Source of the DNA: Candidatus Omnitrophota bacterium
GTDB lineage: Bacteria > Omnitrophota > Gorgyraeia > Gygaellales > Profunditerraquicolaceae
Reading direction: 5' to 3'
DNA: 64,000 nt
NCBI GenBank assembly: GCA_043812955.1
Contig: JBDRLN010000018.1
Coordinates: 13,849-77,848, forward strand
Position 1 is the stretch's first letter; every line of letters starts with the position of its first letter. Both the position numbers and the translations under genes were made by a program. This document shows, one piece after another, positions 5,669-57,900 of the stretch. The notes below the pieces were generated by a model. The model worked only from the letters and a program-made list of their open reading frames with translations, ran no database searches and was not told where the DNA came from.

Positions 5669-6952
<1,284 letters not shown>

Positions 6953-17930: not shown

Positions 17931-17933
17931 GAT

Positions 17934-18045
17934 GACACGCTGTCCTATCTAATCGGGACACGCTGTCCTAACTGAAGCGGAAACAGTGTCCCCTTTGACT
18001 TGGACAGCGTGTCCGCTTTAGCTCTAACAGCGTGGCAGGGATTCA
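17934..18045. repeat. Repeat family A cluster: iterated imperfect palindrome GGACACGCTGTCC / GGACAGCGTGTCC with flanks (CTAATCGGGACACGCTGTCC ... AAGCGGAAACAGTGTCC ... GGACAGCGTGTCCGCTTTAGCT ... ACAGCGTGGCAGGG)
   Basis: Fills the whole kdsD-kdsA intergenic space. Units of 40-65 nt nearly identical to it occur in-frame in the giant gene at 26208-26280 and 59308-59372. The plus-strand ORFs 18000..18275 and 18032..18283 are just translations of this element. Confidence 0.8.
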
Positions 18046-24957: not shown

Positions 24958-27900
24958 CTACGGCCTAATAGCAATAAATCTCATCCCTCCATAATAAAAA
25001 GTATTATACATATCATTAATCGCCTCGATTACCCCTATTTCTTTGAGGCTTTCTACATCAATCGGTTTAATATCAAGCCGGGGGTTAACACTTTTTAACT
25101 GTTCAAAATCAAACCTGCGGCCTTCATTTTTAACCAAAGCCAAAGCTATTGTTTTATATAAAATCCGGAAATTATTACTAATGGGTATCTTATTATAATT
25201 ATTTCTGCTAATTACCTTTGTTTTAAGCGATAATTCCTCCATAGCCAAATGATTAATTCCGTCGACATAACTCTTATCAACCATATCAGCCATCATAATA
25301 TCGTTTTCCGCCTCCTCAAATAACAGATTGAGTTGTGCCGCGTCTTCCTGGCTGAGGGCTTTACCTAAAATCCATCTTAATTCTACTTTAAACAATAATT
25401 CTTCAACCGATAACAAGGCCAGACTAGCTTTAAGATGAAACCCCCGGGCAAAATACCTGCTGGCATAAGAATCACTCTGCATTATCTCGGCAGTATATTC
25501 CGGAGTAAGCGCTAAGTTTATTTTTTCCTTAGCCTCGGAATATTTACCCTGTCGATTTAAGGCATCGGCTAAAATTATATGGCTTAAAACCAGCCAATCC
25601 TGTCTTTTATGATTCACCAACCATCTCTTAAACTTTAATAGTTCTTTTGCGTTATTTTCTATCTCCTGATTTAAATATACGCCTCCTACGTAGAACTTAT
25701 TTTTAGTCGACATTTTATCCAGATATTGGATTTTTTCAAAAATATACCTGGTCCGATTATCAGCGCCCTTAGACAAGCGGACTGCTTCATCAAAATCCGC
25801 TAGACACTCTTTAAGATTGCTTTTATCAAAATTAAGTATGGCCCGGATATAATAAGCTACCGGAGAAAAAAAATTCGGCGTATTGATAATCTCTTCGAGT
25901 TTATCAAAAGCCTCTTTAGTAAATCCTCTTTTTTTCTCGGCCAGTTTAAGATAAAAATCTTTCATTTTTATATCCTGCGGGTCATATTTAAATAGCTCGC
26001 CCAATAATCCTAATGCCAACGGATAATTCTTCGGTTCTCCTGATATAAGTTTTGAATTAATGATCCGGTATAATTTTTCCTTGTGCTTGTCAACAACCGG
26101 CGACGACGAGGGACACCCTTTCAGCCAATCGAGGGACACCCTTTCAGACAATCGGGATGATGTCCCCTGCTGTTTTACATCCAATACCATAGCCACCAAC
26201 GCTCCCATTCCTTGCCACGCTGGCAAACCTAATCGGGACACGCTGTCCGAGCCAAAGCGGACACTGTGTCCTAGAGCGGCCGGCGAGCTAGAACAAATAT
26301 TAGCTACTTCTGCAAGAAACCTTAATGTTTTTCTAAACATAATCTTGCCCACTCTATCCTTGCACCAAAGCGCCTTGCCAATATCCAAAGCCAAGGGATT
26401 ACAATCAAGCTTCCTTCTCTTTACATTAGAAAACCAGTCCTTCTGTAATTTGGCATAGTCAGACCCGGTAAATTCAATTTTCCCCATGAGCTTGACATTA
26501 ATAGTATTTAAGTCAAACTGTTCATCTTTGCTATTAAATACGTGGCCGTGGCGCCACATAGTTTCATCAAAGTATGTCCTGATAAACAAAATAACAGGCA
26601 AGTGTTTAAGGTCTTCTTCTGCGGCATCAAATTTATTTTTAATTTTCTTCATGCCTAATAGGAAAACCTCAAGTATCATCTCCTCTAAGAACTTCTTAAT
26701 ATTATTTTCTTCTATTCTGTTGCTTATAATATAAACATTGCCGTAAAATTGCTTAGAGTCGCTTTCCATTATTGAATTAAATAATGACTGCGGCATGCCG
26801 TGAATACCTATATCAGGCAATCTTTCAATTAATTTTTTTACCTGGATTTGATCTTGCCGTAGATTATTTTTAACAGCCGGCGAGCTTCCAACGCAAAGCG
26901 TATCGCCTGCCTGCCGATCAGGCAGTAATCCGTCACTTCTTCTGGCGGAAGACTGCGCCACCGGCAAGGCGGCCGGCGAGCTGGAGCGAAACGTACCCCG
27001 CGACGAGGTAGTTCCGTTTAATCCCGTATTATTTAAAGCCGCAAAGGGAAAGGTATATTCTTCTTCTATTTTCACCTCAAAATCCGCCAACCTCTCCTGC
27101 GCTTCTATAACGCATCCTATCCTGGAATTACTCTCATCCAGATCAACCATCTCTCCGACTAAAATTATCCTTTTCACTCCCAGTTCAAACTTTAATATCC
27201 ATCGTAACCTATCCCAATTTGTAGATAAGCCAACCGGGCAAGCCATCCCTTCCAATTCCACGGGCTCCAAATCATCTAAATAAGTATTAATTAAAATCCC
27301 GTATAAATTATATTTTCTAAATAATTTACCTGCCTCTGTCAATAAATCCATCTTTGGCTTTAACCTGATTGTACTTTTAATATAACGCTGGTCTCCTATC
27401 CCGGCGAATATGGGCCCAGGATAAGACCGGACACGATCGGATAACCTATGAATAAAACTCCGATAACCTCTAACGGCATTCCCTCTTATTGCTTTCCGCA
27501 GTATCAAGGGGACTCTCTTAAAATTCCTGCTGATATAATCATCTAACACATTTTCAAAAAATAACGGGTGGCTCCATAATATAATCTCGTGATTATTCCG
27601 CGAAATACTCCGCCGTAATTCCTCTGAGGCTAAAACTGTGGATATCGGGATAAGCCTTTGACCATTGCCTGCAGGCGGACTGGAAGGTTTAGGCCCTAAC
27701 CTATTGACGCTCCGATCAGCTACAAATTTGGAGGCAAACCCCAATAAAACCCTACCTAACCTAAGGAATTTAACCGGCGAGCTTCCTTTCGGCACTGGCG
27801 AGGCGGAGGTTTTTTGGACTAAGGGAACAGCTGTGCCTGCAGATTTACCCAGCTGATAAATATATCTAAAAGCCTCATCTGGATTGTCACAAGAACTTAA

Positions 27901-30900
27901 AAGCGCTAGATAGCCAAGGGCATCGGCATAATCATATACCCACGCATTGAACCTCTCAGTTAGAATTTGAGGAATTATATAATCGCCAGGCCCAAGCCCC
28001 TTAAATACTTCGTCCAGTTCGCTTAACGTATCTACTCCTCTTGATTTAAATCTCGGGTATTCATTAATAGTAATTATTTTTCTTAAAATGGCCTCTTTCT
28101 GCCGAAAATTAAGCTTAGGCTTAATATGTATTACATCCACCAAGTGCCAATAGGCAGCCCCTGCATAGCTAAATTTATACCCTTTAATTTTGTAAAAAAT
28201 CGTATTGGCATAAGCATGGGCTAACAAAGGATGGTCGGGCAATTCTAGAAGATGGGCCATTTCGTGCGCCATATACCAATAAAAAGCGGTTAATCCTTCG
28301 ACATTATCCTTAGGTATAATTATTCTGCCTTTAATTGTTACCCCCATAGAGGGAGACACAGGGAAGAGAAATTTGTTTATATGCCAGACTCCCGCAATAA
28401 TAACACTCAAACCTAAAATGAATTTACCAAAACCCCTTCTGGATAATATTTCTTGAGGGGTTGTTGCCTTTGCCCCAAAGTATAAAGCCAAACCCGATAC
28501 CCCTAAAAATCTTGCCTCTTGAAGTTTCTCTTGACCTTTTTCAGAAAATCTCGGGTGGTCGAGCGACCGAATAACTTCCTGACAAATTTCTTCTTCCGAG
28601 AATTCCTTAATCGGAAACCCGACAAACCTAGAAGCCTCTTTATATGCATCATATACATCTAATACTACTGGTTTTAGTTCTGGTTTAATTTCATCCCCTT
28701 TACTAAATAGAAAAACTCCGTCATAGAAAAGTTCTTTAAGTAGGTCTAGATAGGCGAATATCATCCCATATATTTTTAAACTTTTTAAGAACCCCCGCCT
28801 ACTTTGTATACCCTCTATAGAACCCTCTGCTGCAGAAGAAGATACAGAACAAATACCTTTATCGGATTTGCCTGATAACCTATTATTTGGCAATGGTTTA
28901 GATAGAGCGTCTCTAGAATCTCTTACTGCCGGCGAGACAAAGGCCGGGCTGGAAGATGTTTTATCCATTGATATGCCTAATATATTTTCTATAAAACTTT
29001 CCGGCCAGCTGAAATACAATTTAAAATCTATATTGTTGCCTTCTTTAGCTGTAAACATAAACTCAGGGACCCAAGAACCATCTTTCCTCAAATACCCTTT
29101 TGTCCTGGCGGGGTTAATTTCAAGCAGTGCAGAGTGGCCGCGAAATGACAGGGCAAAGCGCGCTAATTTAAATTCTCTCCCCAGCCGCGCTTCTAATTGA
29201 GTTATTGAAGGTAAATACCCGGAAGAAACAATCAGAATGGTTGCTTCTTGCGGGCTTATATTATTATTTTTTAATTTGGATTTCAGACTCCGGATAAAAT
29301 AATCCAGATCTGCGTCTTTGTTCTCCCTGTACTTTAGGTAAACCTGCGCCAAGGCAGCAATTTTTCTGTCTTTAGCAATAATGAGGTAGGCGTCTTTACT
29401 ATTTAAAACATTGGAGACAAAAGTTTTATTATCGTTGCCTATGCCGCGAAACTGGTTGCCGGAGCTAAAATTGTCTATAGAAGAGGTAAATAAAATTACT
29501 ATCGCTGCTGCTATTAAAGAAGGATATTGTAGACGCTTTACGTAATCTATTACTGGAGAAGATGTTGCAGAATAAATACTTCGAACTGAACCTGTTGGCC
29601 CGGCCTTATTCAACCCTCTTTTGGCGATATAATTTAAAAATAGTGAGCTGGACTTATTAGTTATTATTTGATAGTTCATAGTTAATAGAGAAGCATCTCC
29701 CATTAAACTACCAACTACTAACTGCGTACTATGAACTAAACTAGCCGGAGAACTGGTAGTTGGTACGGCCAGATAGACGAATTCAAAATCCGACTTTCTT
29801 TTGCCGCTAGAAGTAGTAAGCAGGGCTTTGGTGATTGATTCTAAACTAAGGCTGCTTCCATAAAGATGGTAACCAACCCCTATCTTAAATCTCTCTTCCA
29901 TGATGCCGAAATGTTCAAACAAAGCTGGACGCTGCGGCAAATAAACATAGTATTCATTTACTGAATGCCCTAATGCCTTTCTTAGCATGCTATAAATAAG
30001 AAAAGAGCCTAACCCTATTCCCCGGTAACACTCTTCCTCTACCTGAAAATAATACCTTTGCTCTGTTCCCATCTTCAGCTTACCTTTGCGGATATGAAAT
30101 AAATTATATCCTACCCACGCTTCATTAAAATCAGCTTGATCAACTTTGAGAATTAAATGATAAAATTGCTCGTCACTAAAAAATTTGACAAAATTCCGAT
30201 TTTCCCTTATTGCAAATATTCCCTTCTTATTCTTTACACCTCCGATGAGTTCGCCATCCATTGTCTTAAAGGGCAACTGTCTTAGTACCATCTCTAATAA
30301 ATTTTGGGCGTCTATATTTTTACCCGACGCCGGTGAGGCGGCGGTATATTTAGCGTTTAGCGAATAACGGTTAGCAGATAGATCAAATAGACTACTATAC
30401 ACTCTACGCTCCATGCTATCCGCTGCTTTTTCCACCGGTGAGGCGGCAACCTTTTGAATAATCCTAACTGGCACACACCCTGCGGTAAAGGAAGTCCCAT
30501 CAACAAAAGATTTATTAATCTCACTCGTGCACAAGGACAAGATGTAGTTTACTTTTTTATATTCCCGCTTCATTAATACATCCTTAAATCCTTGCTGCTT
30601 TAATAAAAAATTAACAATCCAAAAATCGTGTTTTGAGGCAATAATAATAAAACCGTTCTTATGCAATAATTCTTTAATAATTTTTTGAATCAAGTTCAAT
30701 ATGGCTTTATCCGCTCCGCCCTTGACATAAGGAACTATGTTCGCGTATAAACCCTTGCTCCAAACAGTCAATCCTTTTACAAATAATACATCTATGCCGC
30801 CCGCCTGTTTTATTTGAGGAAAATATGATTCCGTCTTAAAATTATTCGCGACTATCGTAGTTAGATTTTTTGTCTTCTCTTTAAAAAATACCGGTAAGTT

Positions 30901-33900
30901 CATTTTCTCGCTAGCCATATTTTCTAATGCCTGCGGGCTTTGAACTGTGATGCCTAAACCGAATCCATTAAACATCTCGGCATTAATCCCAAACGTCCTA
31001 GCGGCAAAATAGGAAACAAAATAATCATTGCCGATCGAATTATATAGGACATTGCCTCCTAAGACCCCCATTTTTTTCAGGAGATGTAATATTGTAATAT
31101 AGTGTATAAGGGCGTTATCTAATCTTAACTTGTCATACTTAATATAGTCTCTAGTCCTTAACCATGTTAACGTTTGCCGGTCTAAATGAATTTGGTCAAG
31201 TATCCTTTCTATGTCGTTTTCGAAGAATAAACGGTAGAAATATTCCTCATCTAAAGGCGAGCTGGACCCATTTCCACCCCGTAGGTGGAAATGGTTTGCG
31301 GCTGGCGAGCTTCCGACACAAAGCCTGGCGCTTGCCTGCCGGTCAGACAGGGATCCGCCACGTATTGTGGCGCGGGGCTGAAGCACTGGTTCCTCAAACC
31401 AATTCACTATCAATCTACGGGTTCCCGGGATCATCTCGCCACCATTGATGAGAGGGCTCGATGTCGAGGCGGAACGCTTATCCATTAACATTACCTCCGG
31501 GAAACCTTCACTCAGGAATTTTGCCAAAGTTTCAACTGCGAGCTCCGCATCTTCGCCTTCTGCAATAAGCTTTACCTGGGCTGCGCTTATCCATGAATCA
31601 ACGATAGCATCCGCAACCGCTGCCAGCGAATCCAGTATTTTTTTAAGATTTACGGTTTCATTTTTATGTTCTATATAGATACGGGATAAAAATTTATTAG
31701 CTAGCGCCACTAAATTGCTGATATCATGTTCGTGTACTTCTTCGCAATTATCAACTATACATATTTTTTCTATCCTTTTCAGAGTATTTTCTTCAGGTGA
31801 AGATTTTACCGGCGAGCTGGATATAACAAAACTGCTACTATTTACTTCTGCCATTTTCACTTTATCTAATTTATAATAAGTTGTATATACGGGATCAGGA
31901 ATATTAGAAACAATTCTAAAGGGATCTGATTTTTGAAAAATTAATGGGATGCCTAATCCGGCATTATAATTTACTATTTTCAAACCTTGATGTGGTATAA
32001 ATTTAAAATCTCTTCCCCAAACCTTTATACTCCGCAAAATTGTTTTAGGTTTTATGCAAACTAAATTTGCAAATCCTACTCCTTCCGGTTTCAGCCTCCT
32101 TTTAAGAACATTGTAAACTTCCACTCTATCTTTGAAATATTGGCCAACATTATACCCAACCACAAAGATATCAAATAGGCCGGCCCCCAGAAATAATTGG
32201 CCCTCGTTCAAATCCCGCAAAATAAAATTATTCCTAAGGTGTTGAGAGTATCTTTCCGCCCTATCTAGGTCTATTTTCACTCCTAACCTTTGCATAAATC
32301 GGCCGGCTATACTATTTGCGTCTATTTCAACGAGATCATGCTTCGCTAAGGAGTAAAAACTTATCCCCTCTATATTTATTCTTTCTTTTACTTCCAGCAA
32401 AAACATTAATTCAAAAAGTTCATAACCCCTGCCCGGGCCGACCCATAAAATACTGATTTCGGGATTTCTTTTCATACTTTTTTTAATTCTGCTTAAAATT
32501 GACTTATAGAGATGTCCGTCGAATGCTTGGTTAATCTCCCTGAAAAAGTGGCTAATATAACCTTCAGGATAGTTAATCATCGGCGAGGCGGCGGTATTGT
32601 TCCTTATGGCCGAATTGCGACCGGAATGAATCGTTTGATTGATGGATTCATTTTTTGACTCAATGCCAGACAATGGGCTAGATACAGCGTCTACATCTTC
32701 TTTTTTGCTTAAATTTGAAGATATCGATGAAGTAAAGATAAGCCTGTCCACCCAGAAAAAAATCGCCGCGCCGATTAAATTAGCTATGACCGTCGCAAAT
32801 AAGCTGACGCCTAACCACCAGACAACCAACCACAAAACAGGGGTACTCAACTGCCAACGGATAAGATAAAGAATAAACCTTTTTATTGATAGCCCGCTGT
32901 TCGTTTTTTCTGCCGGATTGCTGGATTCTTTCTCTACAGGCGAGGCGGCGGCATATATGTTATTGATTATAAAACTGGCTGAATAAACGGCAGGGTTTAA
33001 AAACGCAGCTTTAAAAATTAGCAGCGGCTTTGGACCTGCCCTGATAGGACAGCTATCCATCAGCGGACTTGAACCGGAGTTTTCCGTAGAATTATCGGTT
33101 AATGTAATAGCCTGGGCCAAGCTCTTGCCTTCCCAAAGTAACCTGGCTACAAAATATTTGGAAGGTACATCGTATGGAAAATAATAATCCAGCGCTCCAT
33201 ACAGCATCTTTCCGTATTTATAAGTCCAAACCGGTTCTCTTGATAGGTTATCCCATAAACTCACCCTGCTCGCATCCAGTAAATATTTCTGCAATATCCC
33301 TACCGGGACAGCGCTGGCGATCAATTCACCTTCTGAGATATATTTACCTTCGGTTTCGGAAGATTTAATCATCTGAGATAATAACCTTTTTTCTTCTAAG
33401 CGTATAAGATTTATTAAATTCGGCAATCCTTCCCGATGAGCCTTTCTCAATTTTCCTGGCCATAACGCGTGAATAAATTCATGGGCAACAGTTAGTTCGG
33501 AATTTAACTCTACTAAATCTTTTGACCAAAGTTTTCTCCGTTTAACCAATATAGTCCAATTGCCAAGCACGGACTTATAAGCTGTCCCTAAACCCGGACA
33601 ATAACCTCTACCTCGACAAAAATCATGTAGCCGATATTTTACATGCATATAAAAATACAAAATAATCGTAGAAATAGCGATGCTGATTAGGATAGAACTA
33701 AATTCGTTGTCCGGGATTAACCCAAAAGGCTTAATTATAAATTCAGCATATGCCCAGAAAACCGTAAAAGCAGGCAACCCCAACAATAAAAACCCGGCTA
33801 AAAAAATAACCGACTCGCCGATAAAACCTACCATGTTTAACCATGAAGTACGCGGCGTATACGGTCTAACCGTAATTGCCGAAATAAATTTTTTAATTTC

Positions 33901-36900
33901 CTCGGTTGGTATCTCCGGATATAGGCGCGCTGCTATCTCTTCCATTTTTTTGCGAGCAGATTTAGCGTATTTTTTTGAAAAAGATTCTAAACCAATCGCC
34001 TTCTCAATAAATGAATCGATCTTCCGCGTCCATAGCGGCGCAACTCCAAAAACTCTATTTGTTACCGGCGAGCTGGAACAGCCTTCAGCTTCGGATATTT
34101 TCTTCTGGCTTAGGCTGGCCAAATCGGCTATAAGCCGATCGAGTTCTTTTTTAAAAGCTTTTCCTGACTCCTGACTCCAGAAATAATTAAATACCTGGAC
34201 TCTGGATAAACCATTTAGAATATCGCAAAGCATAACTGGATCTATTTTCATTAATGGCTTAAGCCGGCAACAAAGATAGAGGTTAATATCGCTAATACTC
34301 AAATTATGAGCGCCTAACCACATCTCGCTATCCCGGATTAACAAACCTATCTCATGCTCTATCCTCGCTCGCCTATCAACTATTTCAATAGCCCTTAAGA
34401 AAATATATAATTTCTTAAAATATTCCCCCAATTTTAGCTGTAAAGCATTCTTTTGTTCTGCGCTGACGGTTTTCTCGCTACTTTTGATATATTGTATGCG
34501 CAGACGAACATTATTAATTAATTCAACCAATATCTCGCCGGGATTATAAATCTTTTCCTGAAAACCAAACTGGGGATGATTTAAAAACTCTTTTAAATCA
34601 CTGGGATAATTTCTGGCCCCAAGGCGTAAATTACTAGATCTTGCTATAACTAAAGCTTTCTGAATAACTCTGTTGTTATCCGCTGAATCTACCATTGTCA
34701 TAACAGAATTTAAAATACCGCTAATACTTACATCGCTACTCCCTTGAAAAATTTCACTCAGTAGCATTTTTTGTTTTTCCCAATCAGCGCCTATTCTGTT
34801 AAATGCCTCTTCAATTAAACGATTAGACAACAAGCTATTACTCTTAGCAGCCGGTGAGCTGGCAGAAACCATGCTTACTCCGATAATTACATCGAATTTC
34901 GCCCCGCTTAACTGTCTTATTTTGGCGTTGATTATTCTATCCATATACCGGTAGTTCTCGGGTAAAAACCTTATCCCATACTTTTTCTCTTCTTCTCTCG
35001 CAAATGCCAAGGTGGTATCGCTACGGAGAAAATTTTTCATCTGGGCTAAGGGGAACTTCGCAGAGAATCCCTTATTTTCAGTAAAAATAAATTTTGGAAC
35101 TCTGCGCTGCCTAATTCCGGAGCCGTTAAAAATGAAGGCTTTGATTGTCTTTACCACATAACCGTCATCTGCTTCTCCAAAATATACGATATTCCTTATA
35201 TTACTGAATCTGGGTTCGGTAAGCACCTGAAGGTGGGGCCTGCGCAATTTCGAAGTTCCGATTACCTGTTGATATAGCTTACGCAGGGTAAGATGGAATT
35301 TAAATTCAAAAACAGTATTATCGCTGATCGCGTCAAATTCCTTGCCCGCCCCCCTCTTATCATAAAAAATCGGGTTAACTGATTGCACAATGCCCAAACT
35401 TATACCTTCTAAAGTAGTCCCTCTTTTGATGATTGCCTCATAAAGCCCGGATATTTCTCCGGCTAGACCCAGGACCTGTCCATTGCCGCTTTCTCCCTTA
35501 TAAACCCCTTCTGCCATTTTAGTAATGGCATTATTAACAGCCGCTTGGACGACAGATTCATTTTTACCCTTATAAACAAACAGCTTCTGCATCTTAAGCC
35601 ATAATCTGTTAAAAGAGAAATCTCTAGCGGCAAAAGCACTGATTACCAGAAGGCATTCTTTTAATTCTTCCGGCAAGGAAGAAGTTTTTATCTGTGTAAT
35701 ATTTTCAAGAAGGCTTTCAAGCGGCGAGGCGGCCGGCGAGCTGACGCCCTCATGGTATAGCCACAACAAATCACTAATTATCTCAGCCTGCCATTCAGGG
35801 ATTAGCTTAAGAAATGACGCATGTGTTACAATTTCATCTGGGGAATTAATTTTTGCTATGCTGTTATCGGAGAGTTTGAGGTTCGTGGTAATATTTAATA
35901 CCAGCTCCGGAGGGGCGCGGGCTTCTTGAGCCAGGCATACTGCCAGCTTCTGCAAACCAGCTCGCGACCCCAGAGCAATCCTACCTTCAGCTAAAATCAC
36001 GCTATATTTACCATTATTCAATTTAAACTTAATCTTAGCAAACAATTCCTTGCCGTATTCCGTTTCTGCCTCCTGCTGATCCTGCGCAGATACATCCAAA
36101 TACGATCTGATCGGCGAATTTACGCCGTAGACGTATCCGCTTCCGGCGGTGAACTGTGCCGCCGGCGAGGCGGCGCCTTGGCGCAAATCAATAAATTCAA
36201 ACCCCTTAGAACTAGCAATATTGGGTAATCTCCAGGGTGTGTTATTATCAAATGGGGCTTGCGGGTTTACGGCTAAATCTAATACCATATCGAACTCGGT
36301 TTTAATCGTACTCCTCACTAAGCCCAGCTTGCTCCAAAAGTCAAACTGACATGGCAGAGCCTTTAAAACAATAAACTTTTGGAGATTTAGACTATGCGCT
36401 TCCTCTATAATTAATGAGCCTATTGCCGAAAAAAGCCCTTTTTCCTGAAATGACGGACTAATATTGATATCCGCACGCCGGTTATCAATAACCATAGCAG
36501 CTTCTCTTTTATCCACGCGGTAATGACAGTAGCCGCAGAAAGGTCGTTCTGTTTCTATAAATTTATATCCTTCTCCCTGATAAAGTTTATCTTGATTAAT
36601 CCTATGTAAATCAATACTGATTAATGCTTCGCTGGGTATTTCCTTTTGCCTTAATGTAAAAAGCTCTTCTTTAATTAAGACAACCAACTGCAACACGCCG
36701 AATTGTTCTTTTTCTAATAACTCAGCGTTATCTAAACTAATTTTAACTGGCGAGCTGGAACCCCTGGAGCCCGATACCGGCAAAGCAGCAGATGATCCGG
36801 CTAGATAGACGGATTCAAAATCCGACTTTCTTTTGCCGCTAGAATTAGTAAACAAGGCTTTGGTGATTGATTCTAAACTAAGGCCGCGGCCATAAAGACA

Positions 36901-45900: not shown

Positions 45901-48900
45901 TTCGGCTATTATTCCTGACATATTCCTTAATCTTATCTCCATCAGCCATTCTTTATCGAAACCTTCTTTAATCTTCTGTATCTTGCCTTTGTATTTGGGC
46001 GTTAAATCTAAACTCTGAGATAGTGATTTTTGGAAACCGCTGCAATCTTCTTCTGTAGGCTCAATAAAACGTATAAGGCCCTGTTTTTTCAGCTTATCTA
46101 AATGTTCAGTTAAGATAAGTTCGCCATCGGCTAATTTTATAATGATCCCATCTTTTAATAATCGTTTTATTTCTTGGGGAGTTCTTGCTTTACCATTTTT
46201 AGTGGTTATTAATTTCATGGGCTCTTCGCAGGTAAGCGGCCTAAAATTTTCCGGGGTAAAATTTCCCGGATCTGACCATTCGCCAATATGGTATAACAAT
46301 CTATCCTTAAGCCGCATTTCCTTAAAGTCTCTGTGCCCATCTTTTATTTTAGTTAGTTCAGGAGTAAAAAGCGTACCCTGAATTGATTTATAATACTTTG
46401 CAATATTCGGAGTCTGGATGGCCTCTATATTAATAAAGGAATCCAGGGCGTAAACATAATGTTTGGCTTCTTTTAGATCCCAAGTTGATCGAGGAATACT
46501 TAAATTATCGCCGCGGTCAAGCAATTTAATTGCCCTGGCATACTTGGAACTTGAGTGAAATATCCTGCTTATAAACTCCTCTTGAGTTTCACCTTTTCTT
46601 TGAGTGAGAATTAAGACTATATTCAATATAAAATAGGCTTTTCTAAACTGTAAAGTTTTAAAAAGAGCGAAACCAAGTTTAAGTATGAACCAACTTATTC
46701 TTTTTCCTGCATCTCTGTATTCTTCTATGGTATCGTGCAAGAGGATTACAGAAACAAAAACATCCAATTGTAGTTTTAGATTATCAATGTCCTGAAAGAT
46801 TCCTTTATCCTTAACAATTTTTGCAACCATACGTAGGAGGTGCATAAGATATGGCTCGCCAAGCGCCTGCCGAAATCCGGGATGAATCTTCTTGGCTATC
46901 TGATAGGAAACTTCGATAAGGTTAATATTAATCCCGGGAGACATAAGTGCCAGATTATCCTTTAGTGCATTAAATTGCTGATCAAGTTCTTGTTCAGTAT
47001 ATTCGCGCGGAGAATATTTCATAAGATAAACCGGTACGGAAATCCTGTCTTTCTCCCAAAATGTTGCCGTGCCCCTGACTACCTCCTTCATTTGCGGGAA
47101 AAAGCTAAACCATTTTTCAGCGGTAGTAAGTAAAAACCCGTTATTTTCAAGCCAATCAAGCATATTACTGGCAATGATAAAAGTCCGAATATGGCCGATT
47201 GGTTTTTGTTCTTTTTCAATCAGGTATTCATAAAAATTATAAAGAATAGCGTAAAACTTCTCCTCCCTTGGAACATCTAGTCGAATATCAATAAATTTAC
47301 GCACATCCTCTTTTATCTGATAAGTCCCCTCTTCTCTTAAATCAAAATAGCGCTTAAGTAGTACCCTGGTTGTCTCGGAGAGATAACGCTCTCTATTTAA
47401 GGTTTTAAAACAATCTACATGATAAATACCTTTTTTTGCTTTATTAAACGCCTTCTTATCGAAATCAAATACCGCAACTTTTAAAATATCGGGGGTAAGT
47501 TCTATTCCTTCCCAGGCCCCGGGATTTTCTCTTCTATCCTCTAGAAGCCAAATGACTACCTGGTGAGCCTCGGCAATAGTGGAAATACCGTATAATTCTC
47601 GTACTGAGCCAAAACTTAAAATTTTAATCTGCTCCCCTGGTTTTGCCTGCGCTAAACGCTTTCTAATTAAAGGAATAACATCTTCTTTAAACAAGCCCAT
47701 TACCTCTTTTCTTTCACCTATACCTACATTAAAGAAGCGATAAGGATACGATACTTCTTCCTTACCCTGAGCCCTCATCTCTTTCGGCACTCCCACTGCC
47801 GATTTTCTTCTATCCTGATTAACCGGCGAGCTAACCGAAAAATTGATTTGGGCTTGAGCGCGCGGAACAATAAATACACTCATATCCCCATAATAATATT
47901 CGGGTGAATCCTGTATTGTTCCAATTACTTTTATTACCTTAAGAATTTCTATATCTTTAGGATCTATATCAATATTTATTTCACTCAATTCATTTAGGCT
48001 AAACCTGCGGCTGTCTTTTTTACGTAAGAGCCAGGCAATCTCTCGGAGCAATTTGCTAAGGCTTTTTCTGTAGGAAATGCAAGAGATAATATCATCGAAA
48101 TCCTTTTCTTCAATCATCGTAAATTTATTGGATAAATTCATAATTGTTAAACAGTTTCTGCCTTGAAGATAAGATCCCCCTCGCTCAAAGGCATTCTTTA
48201 TGTCGTTTGCAGCCGCAGCAAACAAAAGTTTTAAACCATGGATGTCATCCCTGATAGCTAATCCACTAATCCAGCTTAGTTCCGTCTTTACGAGCATCTC
48301 TTCAATATTAGTCAGCCTTATGCTCGCCCTAAGGTCAAAGGCCCGGGCAATATATTTATCCACCGGGAATCTATCTCCTTTTATATTTATCAGGTAGCTT
48401 TTCTGGAATAAGGTGTTTAAAAAATCTTCCGCATATTGATATTCGTTTTTACCGATTAAGGCCTGAATAAGAAAAACATTTACAATAAATTCCCAATTAG
48501 GGGTTACATACTGACGTAATATTTGATCAAATTGAGAAACCTCCAATACCGTCCGATTAAGCTCATCGGCAATATCAAATCCGTGAGCATATAATCTACC
48601 GGACTGAAGAAAATCATCCAAGTAGGCTGCTTTTTCAAAAAGATATGCTACTCTGTCCTCTAGCGTCTGTGAAAACCTGATCGCAGAATTTAAATCTTTT
48701 AACCCCGCCTCAAAGTTACGCATCTTAAGATGGAAAAATGACCTTAAGTGGTAGCCCGCCGGGCATAGATCGATCTCGCCGATGATCTCCTCTGTTTTTT
48801 GAAAAGCCAAGGCAAACAGATCTTCACTCATATCGGCAACTTTTAAGTAATCAAGAATGGGCGCTATATCTTGAGGATCCCATAGAATCAATTCTTTAAG

Positions 48901-51900
48901 CCATTCTAAAGCTAATGAATAATTTCTCTCATATATTGCCGTCCCGACTGCATAATTCAACCTTTCCTTATACTTGTCCTCTACGGGCGAGCTGGAGAAC
49001 CCGGATATCTTTTCTAACAGTAGTTTTTCTAGACTATCCTCTTCTCTTAAAAGACTCCTTATCACCTTCTTAGATCTTTTCCTACGGTAGGCATCTGCTT
49101 TCAGGACTTCCTGCTCAGCTTCATCGCGTTTACCGGAAACATCCTCTAGAGTTTTGAGTCTATTTGAAGTATCAGGCGATTTTATCCCCTGCGTAACCTT
49201 TCTTAATTCGCTTAGGAAACCTACCTCTTCAATCATTTTCTTTGGATCGTTTTCTGCCTGCCAATCCTCAACCCAAGACATCTCAAAAAGCAATTTTACC
49301 TTAAAGTGCTTCCATAAAAATTTGTCTACCTCTGCCTTAACTTTATCTAACTGTTCCAGGAGATTTTTTGGATAAGGTAAGACTGTATTCCTTTCTATAA
49401 CTAAGTAAAATACTTCCGGAGGCTGCCTTACAATAGTAACCTGATAACCTAAATCCTGGTTATTGAAGAACCGGTCTAGGGCTAAATTTAACAATAATAT
49501 CAGGGTATTCCCCGCTTTATGGAAAAAGACTCCCTCAAAAGATTTAAAACCAAAAATATTTGATCCATCATTAGCTTTTCTGATTTGTCTGCTGCCTGAA
49601 GCCTTTATCATATTTTTAAGAGTATCCGGGTCATCGCTGGTATAAGCCGGGTTTAGCCTGCAAAGTGAAATATCTTTTTCAGCCTGGATAAGCTGGTCTC
49701 GTAGAATATAATATAAGGCAATACGCATGAATGAAGGATAAAGCTCTTCTCTTTTATAGGGCAGTCTTTTTAAACCCTGCCCTATCTGGGCTGATTCTTT
49801 AAACAATCCAGCTCTCTCTTCCTCAAAATCTGAATCGCCAATGCTTATTTCTGCTTCAGGAATTTCAACCGATTCCTCTATCAAAACATAAGGTTTATTA
49901 TTTTTGGCTATATCCTGAAGCATAGACCCGGCCTTAAGGATATTCTCGACTAATTCATCTATATTATTTTGCGAGGCAAAACTTGCTGCCCTGGCACCGC
50001 CTATAGGCAATAAAGGAACAGGGACAGGCAAATCAAATTTCCCTCTTAGCTTAAACTTATCTTCGGAATTAACCGCCAAAACTATCCTTTTTAAAGTTTC
50101 TCTCAAAGAATAAAGGCTTCCTCTTTCAAAAAATATAAAATATTTATTCTCTGCCCGGCTACCAACTAACACCGGAAGAATAATGACTTTTTTTACTGAT
50201 TCGGTTTCTTTAAGCTTAGTTATTACGTCCTCACTATTTCCTTTTAATATATCCAAAGACGCTATAGCGTATCTTCCTTTAAAATATTGCATCAGCTCAA
50301 AAAGAATAAGATAGGATATCCTCTCAACCTCTTCCTTCTTATATTTCTTAGGGCTGATACTCAAAATCTCATCGGCAACCAGATGCCTGGTGAATCCGCC
50401 AAACCTTTGCTCAACGCTATCGGCGATCTCTATTGCCTTATTAATTAAAAGATCCATAACCTCCCGGCCAAAGGTATTATTTCTATCGTAGAGTTTTTTC
50501 ATATCGCCAAATTTAACCCAGCAATCGCCCTCCTGCGCCAGGAACTCTTTTAATTCAGTCAGGGCAGTCGGCTTTATAACTCTCTTAAAGAAGGGAATTT
50601 CCTGCTCATAGCCCTCTTCCGCTTCTAACCATTCCACATATTGGCCTATGGCGCAATCTATCTCCTGCCGATACCTCAATTCAATCTCTGAAAGAGTATA
50701 CTTTGTCTTGATGCCATCTATAAAATCAAGCGCTTCTTTAAAAAATTCAAATTCTATTTCTTTTAATTTCTGATAACATTCCGCGGCTTTTTCACCGATT
50801 GTAGAATCAAAATCGTAGTAAGAAAGCTCCTGGAGTTCTCTAAAATAAATCATAACTTCATAGGTATTATCGGAAAATCTTTTGGTAATATCGTAAAGCA
50901 TTGCCACCTGGGGATCTATAAACTCATAATCAAACTCCAGATCTCCGAACTGAATAAGCCCAATACCTTGTTTTATATATTTGCGGTACAGGAGTGTGTT
51001 AATATATATTCTTAATTTGCTGGCAGGAGTAGCTATACTTGCCTGCAAACCATAGTTCTCAATAAATTCAGTATTATTCCTTATCTGCCGAAGGTTACTT
51101 TCTCTTGAGAAATTGATTAATCCAACCCTGACCAATATGCCTATTCCCTTAAGAATCCTTATCGCTTCTCTATTTTGTTCAGGTATTATTCCTTTAGTGA
51201 AATATTTCAACTGGCCAGAATCATTACTCTCAACCCCTAAAAATACTTGCTTAAGGCCTGCCTTTTTCAATAACTCAAACACCTCTCTGCTATCTTCGGT
51301 TACAGCATCGGAACGCGTAAGTATCCAGAAATTTATCCTTAGGCCTCTTTTAATAATTTCATCGGCTATTCCCCTGGCTCTTTCAGGCTGATTACCGATA
51401 AAATCATCATCAACAAAATCTATTCCGGTTATCCCGACTTTTATGAGGTATTCTATTTCATCCACTACTCTTATGGCTGAACGGTGACGCCAGAATAAAT
51501 CCTTGGCCCGAATTAAAGAATTCTCGCGGTTGATACAATGGGCTTCATCAAAAAATTTATGTATGCCGCAAAAGGCGCAAGACCCAGGACAGCCGCGGGA
51601 AGAATCTAACTGGGCTATCTTGGCAAACCTGTCCGTTTTATCATGAACTATTGACCAATCCAAAGGAGGTAATTTATCCAGGTCTTCCGTGGTCAGAACA
51701 TAGCGGGGATTACTGACGATTTCGCCTTGCTGGTTTCTATAAATCACATTTTCTACGCCTTCTAAATCCTGCCTTTCTGATAATTGCTTTATAGCCTTTA
51801 CAAAAGCCAATTCTCCCTCCCCAGCCACAATAAAATCAATATCCGGGAATTCCTTCAAGAAATTGTCTTTGGAAATACTAGGTAAATAGCCACCGGCTGA

Positions 51901-54900
51901 GATGAAAAACTTTCTATTGCTTTTTAATTCTTTAGGCAGGAGACTAAGGAAATTTGTAAGATACGCCTTGTCAGCCGGAAATAAGCTTAAACCCAGGAAT
52001 ATCTCTTCTTGCGGATATTTTACCGAAAGAGCTACAACCTTGTTGGCTAAAGCTTCTGCGGATAAATTAAGCTTATTGGCATCAATAAATTCTACCGCGA
52101 TATCATTTGCTTTTAAGGAGGCGCTGATTCTGGCGAGGCCTAAAGGTTTAACGCTTCTAAGGGAGGCGTGATCGGGATTTATTAAGATAACTACGGGGCT
52201 TGAGGATGGCGGCGCATGCGCAAAAAATCCTTTTTTCTCATTCAACAGCTGATTTAAAAATCCCTCTAAAATAGGGGACGTTTCTATTTTCCTTTGCGCC
52301 GGGGAGCTGGATTTTCTGGCAGTAACTAGGTATTTATTCTCTAGGCTTACCTGTGAATAATGATATACTGCGGGATAGTCTACAGGTATATTCTTACCCT
52401 TAAATAATCTAACGCTGGATGCTTCAAAACCAGCCCCTTTTATAATAACAGCTATCTCTTCGGCTTGAAACCCGTTATCCCGGTCATTGTCCACACTCAT
52501 AAACGCAACTCCGCCTCCGAGGCTGCATACCCGTAAAGACTCCTGTAAAGCTTCTTTTATTGATCCCAATCCTACAGTAGGATTAGGATAATTCAAGGTG
52601 ATAAGGTTAAAGGTGCCATCCCGGAATTCAAGACAGGACCAGTTCATATTCCATATTAAAACAAGGTTCTTCTCCGCAGCAAAGCCGGATAATATCTTTT
52701 CACCGTCATTATCAATGCAAGTAAAACGCGCTCTTTTCCCCCACAGCGTATACCTGGCATCCCTGGCAAAATCGCCAAACCCCGCCCCGATGTCTAAACC
52801 CCAGAGCAAACGCAAGCCCGTATACCTAAGAATATGGTTACAAAATTCGGTGAAAATATTCCAGCCTGCTTTGCCTCTTTTAATTTCAATCCGCTGGTTA
52901 ATTACATACGCTGCCTGCCTGATAAACTCCTGCTTACGGGGGTCGCTTTCGCTTGCCAGAAGAGACTCTAACTCTCCAAGGACGCTCCTACCGACTAAAT
53001 CCACCAAACAAATCATCGCCCGATGGTAAACATATGGCATATCGCTGGATAAAAACAGCTCCAGAAGAATATGTTTAACCTTACTCTTTTGAGTAGAAAC
53101 CTCTCTTTCGCAAATAGCCGCAATCGCATCAATTGATTTTTGCCTAAATGAAAACACGGGATAACTGGCAAATCCGGCAAGAGTACTAAAAGAACCAATG
53201 CTACCGCAATGCTTGAGAGCGTTAATAAATTCCAAAGTTAAGTTAAAATATTTAGAGAAATTACCATCTCTATGTATAGCCTCAAGCGCTTTTAATAACA
53301 CCGCCTCTAAACTAAGGTCTACGCCTTTTACTATAGCAATTTTAGGTATAACAACTTCAAGATACTGTAATTTTTTGATATTCATCCGCACCAGCCCGGA
53401 GGGATTCCTTAAAAAATTTTCCAAAACCGGCGAGGCGGAAGTTTTTTGGACATTTTGTCTAAGGAAATCGGCGAACTGCTTTATTAATCTCCCTTCCCTG
53501 AAGAATCCCAGAAAAATTTTTCCGCTAAGCTGATTATCAATATTATCCCCTAACTCAAGGTATTTATAAGCATTGTCTTTACTTAAAATAAAGTAGCGCG
53601 GAGCAAAGCTCAACAGGACAAGATTTGATAACAAACAGGCGGTACGCTTATTACCTGCAGCAAATAGCTTAAGATGGGTTAATTTAACAAAGCATCCGGC
53701 AGCCAGCAAAAACGACGAGTCAGGACCTAAATTATTTCTGTAATTTCTCATAAACCAATTGGCAAACCTCCTGACTGAGCGGGTAGCGCCTTTATGGTTA
53801 ACCTCTCCGGCAGGCCTAATTGCCAGATTTAATTGATTTAAGAACACGCTAAATTCACCCGCATCCTTAAACTTGGTTTCAATATAATTATTAATGAATT
53901 TACATCCAACAATAAATCCGGCAATTATTTTTATATCCGGGCTAAAGTGTTTAAAAAGTAAATTTTTAGCGCCTTGATTAATCTCCGGCCAACTAATTGA
54001 TAATTCGCTAAGCTTATCGAAAACCAATCCTAAATCTATTCTTCCTTTGAGCGAACCCGCAGAGAGCATACTAAAACAAAAATTACTAATCGCGCGCAAG
54101 GTTCTTTCATCTTTTCTCCGTAACGCGCTTTCGTGATCAACGCCTTCAATTCTTCTTACTGCCGGCATGCCAGTATCCTCGGGATCAAAACTGATCAATT
54201 CAGTTATGCCGTCCGTATTTGGGGTAGCTAAATGATCAAATATTTTTCCAATCAGCCCTTTCTTCACTTCGGGAATAATCCTGCCTTCTTTAGTAAAAGT
54301 ACTGATGATTAATGCTTCCCCTTTTCCCCAATGCCTAAGCCTCTTTTGAATATCTTCTAAAAGGGCCGTATTCTCCGGCCTCCCCTTTATAAGCTGGCGG
54401 TGTATTCCCTTGCGAGGATCCCTTATCTTAGCTAAAGAAAGTAAATCCCAAAATAAAGGCATCTGCAACCTCATCCATCGAGATATTCCTTTACTGAAAG
54501 AGAACGCCGGATTAACCAGCACTAATCCATCCACCCCTTTATTTTTTAAAAATTCGCTGTTATAGGAGGCTAAAACCCCTCCGAAACTTTCGCCGATTAC
54601 TATTATCTTAGGATCTTTAGGATAAGGTTGAGTTTCAAAAATTCGCTCCATTATCGGGATAAAAATACTTTGGCTTATATCTTGAATGTTCATGAGTATA
54701 TTCTTTGGCTTAAAGTCAGCGTGAGGAAAAGAGATTACCGCAAATCCCAGCCCTAAAAAATACCTTAAGAATGAATCTTCCTGCCAAGAGATAAGATCGT
54801 AGTAGGGTAGATATAGCTGGCGCATCTTAGGGCGAAAGATAGACCGCAGGAAATTATAGGCATCCAACACCCTCTTACCGTGAACATATATTATAGTTAT

Positions 54901-57900
54901 GCCGACAGGGTTAGCCGGCGAGGCTATTCGAAATATAAACTTTTTTCCCGAGACTTCAAATTTATACGGATAAGGTAACGCTTCAGCTTTTTCGCCCTCC
55001 AGCGGCGAGCTACCTAATTTATGGGAGTTGGAGCAGCTACTAATTTTTTGATTATTTTCTTTCCTTTGCGCAATTTCATCCAAAATGGTTAAATTATTCT
55101 TAAAAGAAGGATTTTCTAAAAAGCTCATTTCTTTGGCTTTCATAACTAAAATAGCTGTTAAATCCGGATTTACTGATATATTTTTATAGGCAAACCCGCC
55201 TACACATTCAATCGGCAACCTACCATTAATAAACCAATATTTACCTTTCCTCGCAGGCACAAGGCCTTTTTCTTTCAAGCCAGTCCTGTTAAATAATAAA
55301 GTTACTTCTTTACTGCGTAAATAACGGTCATCATCGTCTTCCCAAGAATCAAATAACCAAACATCTAACATATACCCGCTATTTAAAAATTTTACGAGAG
55401 ACTCTTCGTCGGTGTTATGAAAAAAATATTCGATAGATCTATGTAATTGAGCGCTATTTAAAATACCCCCGTCATTTACCGGCGAGCTGGAAGATTGTTT
55501 CTTGAGTTCATTCCAATCAATTGTTTCCCGGCCTCCGGTTTCTTTAATGGTCAGCAGGTGCTTAGACTGTATTGCTGCTGTAAGAAGGCCGCTCAAAACC
55601 TCAATTCTCTTTATCAAACGCGGCATTACCTCGATAAAGCTCGCAACATCATATGTCTCTTTCAGGGTAGCAACCGTTAACCAAATCATTTGAGCCGTAA
55701 CACCCAAATCCAACGAAGAATCCCAAAGTAACGGCAAATCCCGTTTAGCCTGCTCCAGGAAGCTCGCCTGGCCATTGCCTAAATCTGTTCCGCTTGCCAT
55801 TAATCGAATAGCGTCTTTAATTTCATCGGCGTTTTTCTCGACTTCTTCGCAAAGCGAGACAGATTTAACCTGCAAAACGCTATTCTTAATTCTAACTACC
55901 TGTTTATTCAAACCATCCACAAAGGCCTGGAGTTTAGTAAATTCCTCATCGGAAAGCGGCGAGGCGGCGGAATATGTAATATTGACAATTGGACTGGCTG
56001 AAAATACGGTAGGGCTTGAAGGAATAACTAAAGGAGATAATTGTGGTTTTGGCCCTGCCCGGGCAGGATTTATCGTATTTGAGTTAAGTAGGGGTAATAT
56101 TATATTTTGCGGATTAATTACATTAACAATTGGGCTACTATTAGCTATGTCTATTGCCAACCGGGTTGCTACTGAAGCGCCGCACGGTCTCTTGGAATAA
56201 AAAGTAGAATTTCTAGATTGCTCTAGCGGCAGATTGGAATGGCTGGCTGCCAATGGACTTGAGCCGGATGAGTTCTTGGAAAGCATACTATTCGTAAGTT
56301 CGAGCTTAATAAATACTGCCTGTTTATCCTCAGCTTGCTCTAAACTATCATACTTTCTTTTTGCGCCAGAATGAACGATGATTTTATAAATCCGCCCTAA
56401 CTTAAATTCCCCTATTGTAAGGCTTGAAATAGGGATATAGGCCACGCCATAATCGCCTTCTTCGCTGATTGTATACATCCAGGGATTACGGCCAAGGTCG
56501 ACATCTGAAATATTACAAATCCAAACTTCATCTTCATCTAACAAACTGACAAAAATGTTTATTCCTGCCTGCGTCTTGGGAAAGATAATTTTTAAAAATT
56601 TATAGCGGCGTAAATCCTTAAATGGTTCATCATTTCCATTTTCATCTTTCGGGCTATTCTTCCAGCAAGAGAACTCTCCATTTTTGGACGCTGTATCATC
56701 AAATCCTTTGGCAATAATTTTTGCCGGCAGAAGAGCTTTAGCTGATTCCCCGCGTGCCACATTAACAATAGCAGGATACTTAAAAGCCACTGCTCCAACA
56801 ATTACGGCCTTTAAAAGCTGTCTGCGGGTTAAGACCTTTGAATTAAATGAATCAGTGCCAAAACTAAGCGGCGAGGCGACGGATGGCGAACTGCTTACAC
56901 GCGCAGGCGAGCTGGCGACGTAAGCGCCCTGAGATTCATTTCCGTAATATTTGCCAAAGGCAAGAATAAAACTCGTCCTTATATTCTCCAGATATCTCCG
57001 GCAGGGCGATAACCAATACTCTTTGTCCCGACTCTGCCAATACTGTTTCTGGGGTGAATCTATCAAAGTTATATAATCAAATTTAAACCCGTTTTCTTTT
57101 AACTTCTTCAGGAAATTATCTATCACTTCAGGCAGGTTTTTTGGATTCACATACTGAAGCGCATCCAGGTCTATACTCAACACACGGTAAATGCGCGGCG
57201 AGGAAATCTTTTCTTCTGGCGGGTGTAACGCAGTAAAACTCAAGGCGGTTTCGGTTATCCTGCGCTGCATTAACACTCTCCCCCCCGGCATATTTTCCTG
57301 TATATCGATAAGAAATCTTCCACTGCTCTTCATATCTACGCTCACCGGCCAATATCCACGACGGGTATTAACCAACATTGCTTCTAATACAATATTATCC
57401 CGGTAGAAGTTACTGCCAGTAATAGGCAAATCATATAACTTCACTAAAGTGCCCTCGATCACCAGAGGACCTATCCATAACCCAGGGGAACGCATTCTGG
57501 CATAATGACGTATTGTCTCTATGTCCGCCGGATTAATAAAGTAAGGGCATTGTTTAAGCTCTCCGTTTAACCAGCGCTCCAGGAGTTCCCGGTGTCGGAA
57601 ATACCGGTCGTTTCGTATGTCAAGACGTTCATTCTCAACCCGGCCTTCGTCAACCCATCTAAAAAATGCCATTTCTTTCGTTTTCTTATCCAGTAGTTCA
57701 TGCAACAATGGCGGAGTAGGAGCCCCCGGATTTCTGTCGTCATGCTGATCCGTGTTGTAAACCACAAAAACACCACCCTCTCTCAGTCTTATTTCGGTAA
57801 GAAGGCCGTATAAAAGATTATGGTCTGCGAAAGAGAATACGGATATCCCATTACATTGATAGAGCTTGATATCATTTCCGTAGGGGCAAGGGAGTTCTAT

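Follow-up and report, generated by a model that had tools for sequence, protein, structure and literature searches.

Do twin-arginine motifs and blocks of membrane helices that lie deep inside a giant reading frame direct export through twin-arginine translocation (Tat), or do they serve the protein in another way? This question is raised by a stretch of 64,000 nucleotides from a Candidatus Omnitrophota bacterium (GenBank assembly GCA_043812955.1, contig JBDRLN010000018.1, positions 13,849 to 77,848; hereafter the window), which harbors on its minus strand a single stop-free open reading frame (ORF) listed with 13,005 amino acids (aa) or 39,018 nucleotides (nt) up to its stop. The ORF has no stop as far as the high end of the window and continues upstream past base 64000; the N-terminus lies outside the window and, the 5' end being open, 13,005 aa is a lower bound for the length of the giant protein. 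The original prediction had read three internal arginine-arginine (RR) motifs as canonical Tat signals, each just after a linker, and had suggested that exported proteins were recently fused into the giant or that its product is cleaved. The observation as such is largely borne out. Apparently, the motifs look more like membrane anchors or leftover leaders than like working Tat export signals, and their Tat interpretation is mostly not supported. With a probability of about one half, the transmembrane (TM) blocks and RR-flanked helices would be topogenic segments of membrane modules; their co-translational insertion would fasten a multi-enzyme megaprotein to the inner membrane, with the arginine pairs as positive-inside determinants and motif 1 as a retained leader.

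In the literature on such genes, giant ORFs are described as common in Omnitrophota, rich in TM segments, and of unsettled processing (Seymour et al. 2023, PMC10066038; the "Archaeovorins" of West-Roberts et al. 2023, 10.1101/2023.11.21.568195; the "multi-enzyme metabolic cluster" class, 10.64898/2026.06.07.730766). The ORF analyzed here resembles them as one stop-free frame of >10,000 aa (over 20-30 kb) with many TM segments (12 by Kyte-Doolittle hydropathy, 19-aa window, at least 1.6) in an ordinary Gram-negative context, and as a mosaic of methyltransferase, radical S-adenosylmethionine (SAM), tetratricopeptide repeat, and peptidase-like content with few annotated domains. Pfam domains were found in frame across the ORF, comprising several SAM methyltransferases, a nucleotidyltransferase, a complete Glu/Leu/Phe/Val dehydrogenase (GDH), B12-binding and radical SAM domains, a CheR-like domain, and HPr; many distinct enzyme domains thus tile the polypeptide, as in the multi-enzyme class, and most of the ORF is unannotated by Pfam. 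A difference is that SecA-DEAD and N-terminal C39 or S8 peptidase domains, typical of many Omnitrophota giants, were absent from the 13,005 aa scanned, the N-terminal part lying outside the window. Judged by its sequence, the giant is an Omnitrophota-type mosaic gene, a known kind.

All three RR motifs were located as predicted. Motif 1, TRRQLLKAVIVGAVAF...VARG with the core TRRQLLK, begins at aa 2383 (window 56829); motif 2, SRRGFLKSL, begins at aa 11725 (window 28803); and motif 3, SRRGFGKFILGLSVIIAGVWH with the core SRRGFGK, begins at aa 11845 (window 28443), 58 aa ahead of the sequence HEMAH, which confirms the predicted position before an HExxH core. The core S/T-R-R-x-F-L-K is strictly matched by TRRQLLK and SRRGFLK and loosely by SRRGFGK. 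Composition shuffles (n = 2000) gave an expectation of 0.007 for the strict form [ST]RR.[FL]LK, which occurs twice in the giant ORF, and of 0.24 for the looser form, which occurs three times when SRRGFGK is added; two strict cores were seen in none of the shuffles and three loose cores in 3/2000. RR dipeptides as such are mildly over-represented (54 versus 42.5 expected). When the hydrophobicity of the 12-mer following RR was compared for 53 of these dipeptides, the three motifs ranked 1, 2, and 4, and no other RR-flanked segment of the giant ORF reached the hydrophobicity of the helix of motif 3.

The stretch following motif 2, IYGMIFAYLDLLKELF, which corresponds to the hydrophobic (h) region of a Tat signal, is broken by D, K, and E. 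Read from the sequence, motif 1 has a short h-region (AVIVGAVAF) and a possible c-region VARG (NVARG); motif 3 is a good helix without A-x-A and resembles a TM segment. The description as canonical holds for the seven-residue core but not at the profile level: the Pfam family TAT_signal (PF10518) matched motif 1 with 12.9 bits (E 0.11), below its cut-off of 22.7, and matched neither motif 2 nor motif 3 nor any of eight control RR segments. An NCBIfam scan gave a weak match to a formate-dehydrogenase Tat region for motif 1 alone and no match to TIGR01409. Motif 1 is therefore the sole RR segment with any similarity to a Tat profile. The motifs share with Tat signal peptides (PF10518, TIGR01409) the S/T-R-R-x-F/L-L-K core and a hydrophobic stretch, in motif 1 also a possible c-region NVARG; they differ from them by being internal, without a start codon nearby, by sub-cut-off or absent profile scores, and by an RR pair that is not conserved in homologues. 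Within one ORF, they start at aa 2383, 11725, and 11845; neither a start codon nor a Shine-Dalgarno (SD) sequence was found between motif 1 and the linker ahead of it. The position just after a linker holds for motif 1 (16 aa) and loosely for motif 2 (45 aa), but not for motif 3 (165 aa). As long as the product is unprocessed, none of the three serves as a functional N-terminal Tat signal. No tat genes were found within the 64-kb window, and the literature searched contained no statement on Tat in Omnitrophota. In the 2026 preprint, signal-peptide calls on non-first chunks of proteins over 100,000 aa that had been divided into chunks were suppressed as artefacts (10.64898/2026.06.07.730766).

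Motifs 2 and 3 are both parts of one membrane module carrying HExxH, a putative zinc peptidase. Its family contains the stand-alone proteins P0005, P0006, P0009 (from an Omnitrophica metagenome-assembled genome), P0015, P0016, P0018, and P0022, which share with the module the invariant columns H-E-x-x-H, L-P, and L-L-A-x-A-Y in our alignment A1. For none of the members was a Pfam family found; an AlphaFold2 (AF2) model of the module reached a predicted local distance difference test (pLDDT) score of 63, with motif 3 as helix 171-195 at low confidence, and a Foldseek search with it against the PDB returned nothing below E = 0.4. The stand-alone homologues P0005, P0006, P0015, P0016, P0018, and P0022 start with signal-peptide-like leaders; in most family members, the leader has the form M-x-K-K...hydrophobic...L-x-N-x-x-Y-G, mostly followed by L-R-x-P; P0004, a stand-alone relative of another module (aa 12365-12563), has an N-terminal leader as well. 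In A1, the window linker SSSPAFVSPAV sits in place of the Sec-type leader of the homologues. Motif 2 lies in a variable region just upstream of the conserved block P-x-Q-K...I-I-D-I-Y-N, where SRREFFKIAVG... is present in P0005 at residue 96 and QRAGFLKKLF, with only one Arg, in P0016; P0018 shows a hydrophobic stretch in this region, and the others have nothing comparable; motif 3 falls within a variable, mostly hydrophobic stretch directly before HExxH. None of the stand-alone homologues carries RR at its N-terminus: family leaders are Sec-type, and RR was found in P0005 only, at an internal site. A past as N-terminal signals is not supported for these RR motifs by the alignment, in which the linker and not RR occupies the leader position. 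Because A1 places both motifs inside the protein, motifs 2 and 3 are best read as internal features of a membrane-associated putative metallopeptidase module and not as former N-terminal Tat signals.

In P0005 (460 aa; residues 85-125), the Sec-type N-terminal leader is followed further in, at residue 96, by a Tat-like stretch that is complete, SRREFFKIAVGSGVSIGLMSKSAAAQ, an internal position that parallels that in the giant. Nowhere else in the further sequences retrieved, which total about 43,000 aa, was a Tat-like RR motif with a hydrophobic stretch found. The giant itself contains three HExxH modules, AHEIGH at aa 8687 (about 37915), AHEFIH at aa 10165 (about 33480), and AHEMAH at aa 11903 (28269); two of them adjoin TM segments, none has a Pfam family, and they are candidate processing peptidases. 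For the module of motif 1, no homologues were found by word-based protein search or metagenome scan, and its AF2 single-sequence model was unusable (pLDDT 32).

The architecture into which the motifs are set was analyzed by means of the linker. The motif [S/A]-S-P-[V/A/L/I] occurs 64 times in the giant ORF as compared to 1.76 times expected (shuffle maximum 7), a 36-fold excess; flanking proteins contain it 3 times in 7,389 aa. Linker sites interrupt none of 13 Pfam domains, and the 40 intervals of at least 80 aa between them have a median of 248 aa, a spacing that resembles that of protein domains. The polypeptide strings together modules of protein size (median about 250 aa), with this conserved motif between them, and some of the modules are membrane modules. 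Two pairs of paralogous modules (24961-26100 and 47830-48987, 34% identity; 29745-30336 and 36753-37359, 59% identity) are duplicated precisely from linker to linker, and one of these paralogues is the C-terminal module of the giant. Similarity of the GDH module, a complete protein, to solved structures stops at the linker, and HPr fills one 118-aa module as a complete protein ending at a linker; a short conserved motif thus stands between complete proteins, as at the junctions of a polyprotein. Each of the three TM blocks predicted originally (41193-41990, 33600-33900, and 32690-32939) was borne out by hydropathy, with TM-like segments at 41365-41844, 33646-33813, and 32734-32850, and each is exactly one linker-to-linker module; none of the three has a Pfam family. 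Architecture, linker, homologies, and positions are direct observations.

At the DNA level, the linker consensus in the window is xCC AGC TCG CCG G. The middle Ser is encoded by TCG at 46/73 sites as compared to 12% of Ser codons overall, and CTCGCCG occurs on the coding strand 32 times inside the giant ORF and 0 times outside. Conservation as DNA (CC AGC TCG CCG G, e.g., at 41997, 41199, 37359, and 34071) is seen in the window genome and in contig L002 of a relative; in contigs L001 and L003, codon choice at the linkers is free. The pattern points to linkers that evolved in concert or were copied within one lineage, or to an extra role at the nucleic-acid level. ARAGORN and Rfam revealed no tRNA-like or known RNA elements in linkers. 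Separate translation of modules from internal starts was rejected, as no SD plus start follows the linkers and the first Met comes at a median of 51 aa; reassignment of a sense codon or a novel stop at the linker was also rejected, as TCG and CCG codons occur all along the giant and the flanking genes. Hydrophobic segments within 45 aa after linkers were not enriched (3/13 versus a null mean of 2.6, P = 0.5).

An exhaustive HMMER search of 1.84 billion representatives with aa 11473-12625 matched only 25 proteins. The long matches are partial giant proteins, and P0001, P0003, P0008, P0024, and P0027 are named Candidatus Omnitrophota or Omnitrophica by NCBI; relatives of the window ORF are thus giant or partial proteins of Omnitrophota genomes with a module-wise identity of 27-66%. 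On contigs L001 to L004, one ORF makes up all or most of each contig. S-S-P-[VIL] occurs in P0001, P0002, P0024, and P0028 at 2.6-3.8 per 1000 aa. L001 (38% GC) and L003 (53.5% GC) keep it with linker serines in both AGY and TCN codons, and the motif is therefore under selection at the amino-acid level; L002 carries the exact DNA version found in the window. The giants are homologous module by module, with the modules in differing order and linkers as the limits of homology. With L002, nucleotide identity (78% over 316 nt) ends at window position 26288, and the first codon of the linker is at 26286. Because of such module-wise homology and of the linker-to-linker duplications, the modules are evolutionary units. 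Linker-punctuated giants are common to lineages of 38-53% GC and 27-66% identity; a recent fusion is accordingly not supported, and the fusion is instead an old one. A word-based search with aa 5383-6115 gave no match, although BLAST finds P0028, and a scan of genome contigs yielded one irrelevant match, in Muribaculaceae. In L004 (GCA_016208765.1, P0008), A-S-S-A-V (GCC TCC TCG GCG GTG) occurs about nine times in 2,692 aa instead of S-S-P-V, a lineage-specific variant of the punctuation.

The short matches of the search are stand-alone proteins. On L006, a family member lies in a row of co-directional genes 4-26 nt apart (B12-binding, IS3-type insertion, HExxH, radical SAM, and a 683-aa protein), five of which start with a signal-peptide-like leader and most of which end in ...S-L. 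Two consecutive stretches of one giant module, aa 3994-4446 and 4495-4658, find their counterparts in the radical SAM gene and in the gene next downstream. L008 contributes three more such genes with the same leader, and two of them share a SAHAVS-x-x-L tail. On both contigs, the module-type genes are separate and co-directional, are spaced by 4-26 nt or overlap by 4 nt, and carry a leader each. Since these leader-bearing genes match modules of the giant, the same types of protein occur fused, with S-S-P linkers and no leaders, and split, each with its own leader. The proposal that the modules are former or alternative independent proteins is hence supported by L006 and L008 as well as by the leader-bearing stand-alone HExxH homologues and P0004. 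A hidden Markov model (HMM) of ten split-gene leaders found no significant match in the giant, and relic Sec leaders after the linkers were rejected.

Stand-alone relatives with unrelated catalytic parts (L006 392-9360; L008 214-7428; P0012, P0016, P0018, P0022) share a leader that is signal-peptide-like and continues with L-R-x-P-x-L..S-x-E-G, and often a C-terminal tail ...S-(x)-L or SAHAVS-x-x-L. Common leader and tail look like a sorting or assembly signal of a protein set that would be undescribed so far. At L006 1694-2862, an IS3-type transposase pair (HTH_28 and rve) is inserted within the array of split-module genes.

How the segments would act as anchors can be outlined as follows. 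The Arg/Lys residues and the hydrophobic helix in the HExxH module most likely form a topogenic signal of the ordinary kind, the positive charges facing the cytoplasm, and the helices would be inserted co-translationally by the signal recognition particle, Sec, and YidC, whereby the giant would be tethered to the inner membrane. TRRQLLK..., the leader-like start of the orphan module, most likely represents an export leader, either retained or degenerate, with a present role as internal anchor, if it works at all. A precedent for an internal twin-arginine motif is the Streptomyces Rieske protein Sco2149, a polytopic protein inserted jointly by Sec and Tat. Its RR precedes an internal TM helix after other membrane segments, as motif 3 does before the HExxH domain; in contrast, its downstream domain binds a cofactor and needs folded export, and the RR of the window family is not conserved. 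The anchor reading agrees with the TM-anchored topology published for this class, as given in the reports on Omnitrophota giants (10.64898/2026.06.07.730766; 10.1101/2023.11.21.568195; PMC10066038). Several points weigh against it. The anchor role is deduced solely by hydropathy and alignment, and the insertion pathway is likewise an inference. With their n, h, and c regions, motif 1 and the motif of P0005 resemble complete Tat signals and not plain TM helices; both lie behind sequence that needs removal, a situation as compatible with processing as with an anchor. For a stable TM helix, motif 1 has a short h-region. Furthermore, a fixed linker of 4-5 residues with the lineage variant A-S-S-A-V exceeds the needs of a passive spacer.

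The main rival reading is one that we hold to be rather unlikely and put forward tentatively: the giant may be a bacterial polyprotein, a precursor cut at [S/A]-S-P-[V/A/L/I] into about 40 proteins, in which exposed leaders including TRRQLLK... target fragments to the membrane or periplasm and the cutting is done perhaps by an HExxH module of the giant itself or by a peptidase that lies N-terminally, beyond the window. Processing would thereby give a function to motif 1 and to the P0005 motif, and motif 1 is both close to a linker and alone in its similarity to a Tat profile. A short invariant motif with variable flanks, conserved at the amino-acid level across divergent giants and replaced by A-S-S-A-V in L004, argues in the same direction, as do the three HExxH modules and the occurrence of the modules as whole, signal-peptide-bearing proteins encoded by separate genes in other Omnitrophota. 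Cleavage was suspected by West-Roberts et al., with cleavage points unknown, the lack of which blocked a module-wise analysis (10.1101/2023.11.21.568195). Since the linker is conserved under amino-acid-level selection, cleavage there would be plausible. Most modules, however, have no leader at all, linkers are not followed by an excess of hydrophobic leaders, the distance of motif 3 from any linker is 165 aa, and the split-gene leader profile detects no significant relic in the giant. A Pro directly after the scissile bond, moreover, blocks many peptidases. Viral polyproteins with short conserved cleavage sites, such as those of picornavirus 3C and potyvirus NIa, are comparable in that whole proteins are concatenated in one ORF, a short invariant motif has variable flanks, and peptidase-like modules are encoded within; in contrast, the gene in the window is cellular and 10-50 times longer, and its cuts are candidate sites derived from sequence alone. 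A shade more doubtful still is the full form of the proposal, in which a cellular polyprotein of >1.4 MDa would yield dozens of enzymes and membrane proteins by cuts at the linkers (in another lineage, at A-S-S-A-V), functionally equivalent to the split arrays of signal-peptide-bearing genes, with some fragments including the TRRQLLK module exported by cleavage-exposed leaders.

Two further explanations are less likely than both the anchor and the polyprotein. The RR and hydrophobic stretches could be decaying signal-peptide remnants of fused genes that are tolerated and unused; split-gene relatives with N-terminal leaders do exist, charged residues break the hydrophobic region of motif 2, the module of motif 1 is an orphan, and the other fetched sequences hold no further Tat-like RR motif beyond P0005. 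We nevertheless regard such relics as improbable, as decay would predict otherwise than intact seven-residue cores (2 versus 0.007 expected), the helix of motif 3 ranks first in hydrophobicity among RR-flanked segments, and the fused architecture is an old one. That 13,005 residues with 54 RR dipeptides simply produced a few likenesses of S/T-R-R-x-F-L-K is compatible with the mild excess of RR, but it would be a most extraordinary coincidence given the shuffle results and the ranks of the downstream stretches.

Whether Omnitrophota giant genes encode one megadalton protein or a product that is cut up is a recognised puzzle. The internal Tat signals were mostly explained away by the present check, which exposed a sharp punctuation motif delimiting whole-protein modules in several lineages, a fused-versus-split relation to arrays of signal-peptide-bearing genes, and intergenic-type repeats kept open in frame in linkers. 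The punctuation motif and the fused/split relationship were absent from the literature searched, which also held no relevant report of an SSSPV motif, and text searches of 10.1101/2023.11.21.568195 and 10.64898/2026.06.07.730766 revealed no linker or cleavage motif. The linkers provide concrete candidates for cut sites, by which the question of processing becomes directly testable, and a principled way to divide giants for prediction of structure and function. Coordinates of the features are compiled in Table 1.

Table 1. Features of the giant ORF and of a neighbouring spacer; positions are those of the window.
Feature	Position	Strand	Remark
Giant stop-free ORF	24958..63975	minus	mosaic of about 40 protein-sized modules; Pfam domains in frame
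RR motif 1, TRRQLLKAVIVGAVAFKYPAIVNVARGESA (aa 2383-2412)	56740..56829	minus	16 aa past linker VASPL
RR motif 2, SRRGFLKSLKIYGMIFAYLDLLKELFYDGVFLF (aa 11725-11757)	28705..28803	minus	45 aa past linker VSPA
RR motif 3, SRRGFGKFILGLSVIIAGVWHI (aa 11845-11866)	28378..28443	minus	TM-like helix, 165 aa past linker
Orphan module with motif 1 (aa 2369-2572)	56260..56871	minus	linker to linker
HExxH membrane module with motifs 2 and 3 (aa 11676-12058)	27802..28950	minus	linker to linker
HEMAH metal-binding-like core	28255..28269	minus	H229, E230, H233 invariant in alignment A1
Multi-TM module (aa 7327-7593)	41197..41997	minus	linkers SSSPV and SSSPA at exact bounds
Module with two strong TM segments (33646-33813), then second HExxH, AHEFIH (aa 9969-10302)	33070..34071	minus	linker to linker
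Two-TM module of 88 aa (aa 10345-10432)	32680..32943	minus	linker to linker
Hydrophobic leader-like segment PVNLAVILTIGLFNLGF (aa 1256-1272)	60160..60210	minus	4 aa past linker ASSPA
Hydrophobic leader-like segment YPSLIAAAIVILFTSSI (aa 11484-11500)	29476..29526	minus	9 aa past linker TSSPV
Linker example PSSSPV	41989..42003	minus	1 of 64 sites
D7 REP-like repeat, array of 13-nt palindromes of GGACAGCGTGTCC type	26210..26287	minus	in frame inside linker
D7, second copy	59306..59383	minus	in frame, linkers at both sides
D7-type REP-like repeat in kdsA-kdsD intergenic spacer	17931..18042	minus	four palindromes, 23-nt period
D1, 107-nt hairpin-forming repeat	26867..26973; also 31292-31398, 40397-40503	minus	in linker

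Some linkers contain repeats, namely D1 (107 nt, 3 copies), D3 (90 nt, 3 copies), and D7 (78 nt, 2 copies). D7 resembles repetitive extragenic palindromic (REP) sequences. Its copy in the kdsA-kdsD spacer has stops in all three frames, with TAG where both giant copies read G-S-D (Gly-Ser-Asp), and both giant copies are stop-free in frame. Because the same REP-like repeat occurs with stops in an ordinary spacer but stop-free in the giant, the linkers, as DNA, behave like intergenic spacers through which translation must go on, and the giant reading frame is actively kept open. With intergenic repeats of the REP type or the miniature inverted-repeat transposable element type, these sequences share arrays of short palindromes in a spacer (17931-18042) and multiple dispersed copies; they differ from them by the in-frame, stop-free copies in the giant ORF, which are unusual for such elements. 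D1 folds into hairpins (z -2.2 to -4.0). Its translation reads ...ATIRGGSLPDRQAGDT.C.GSSPA; the repeat carries the linker motif at each end like a target-site duplication, and D1 may be a small mobile element inserting at linkers. D3 (32913-33002, 44886-44975, and 55932-56021; aa 10301-10348, 6319-6357, and 2611-2675) makes up mini-modules that lie between linkers. P(I/A)RAGPKP, encoded by two copies, is similar to the SecM arrest motif IRAGP, and the tails are alike in all three (IINNIY(A/S)AASP in two, IVNITYSAASP in the third) and resemble the c-region of split-gene leaders in a weak HMM match (E 2.8). A perfect TATAAT is present on the coding strand in two copies.

Bases 1-24,900 of the window contain ordinary Gram-negative genes, MsbA, HldE, KdsB, KdsA, KdsD, SerA, CheR, and PilZ-like, with normal stops and often an SD sequence. 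The PilZ-like gene directly follows the giant gene; on L002, a PilZ gene is located shortly downstream of the giant gene, with a 126-aa gene between. A plus-strand ORF of 164 aa (33680-34174) is antisense to the giant gene across its TM/HExxH module and is probably spurious. GC skew was determined in 2-kb bins and amounted to -0.08, +0.006, and -0.06 in the bins 28001-30000, 40001-42000, and 56001-58000 as compared to about -0.15 elsewhere in the giant ORF. These less negative bins are those with RR motifs or next to the largest TM block, the lower end of which lies in 40001-42000; the deviation possibly reflects the composition of membrane modules or a different origin.

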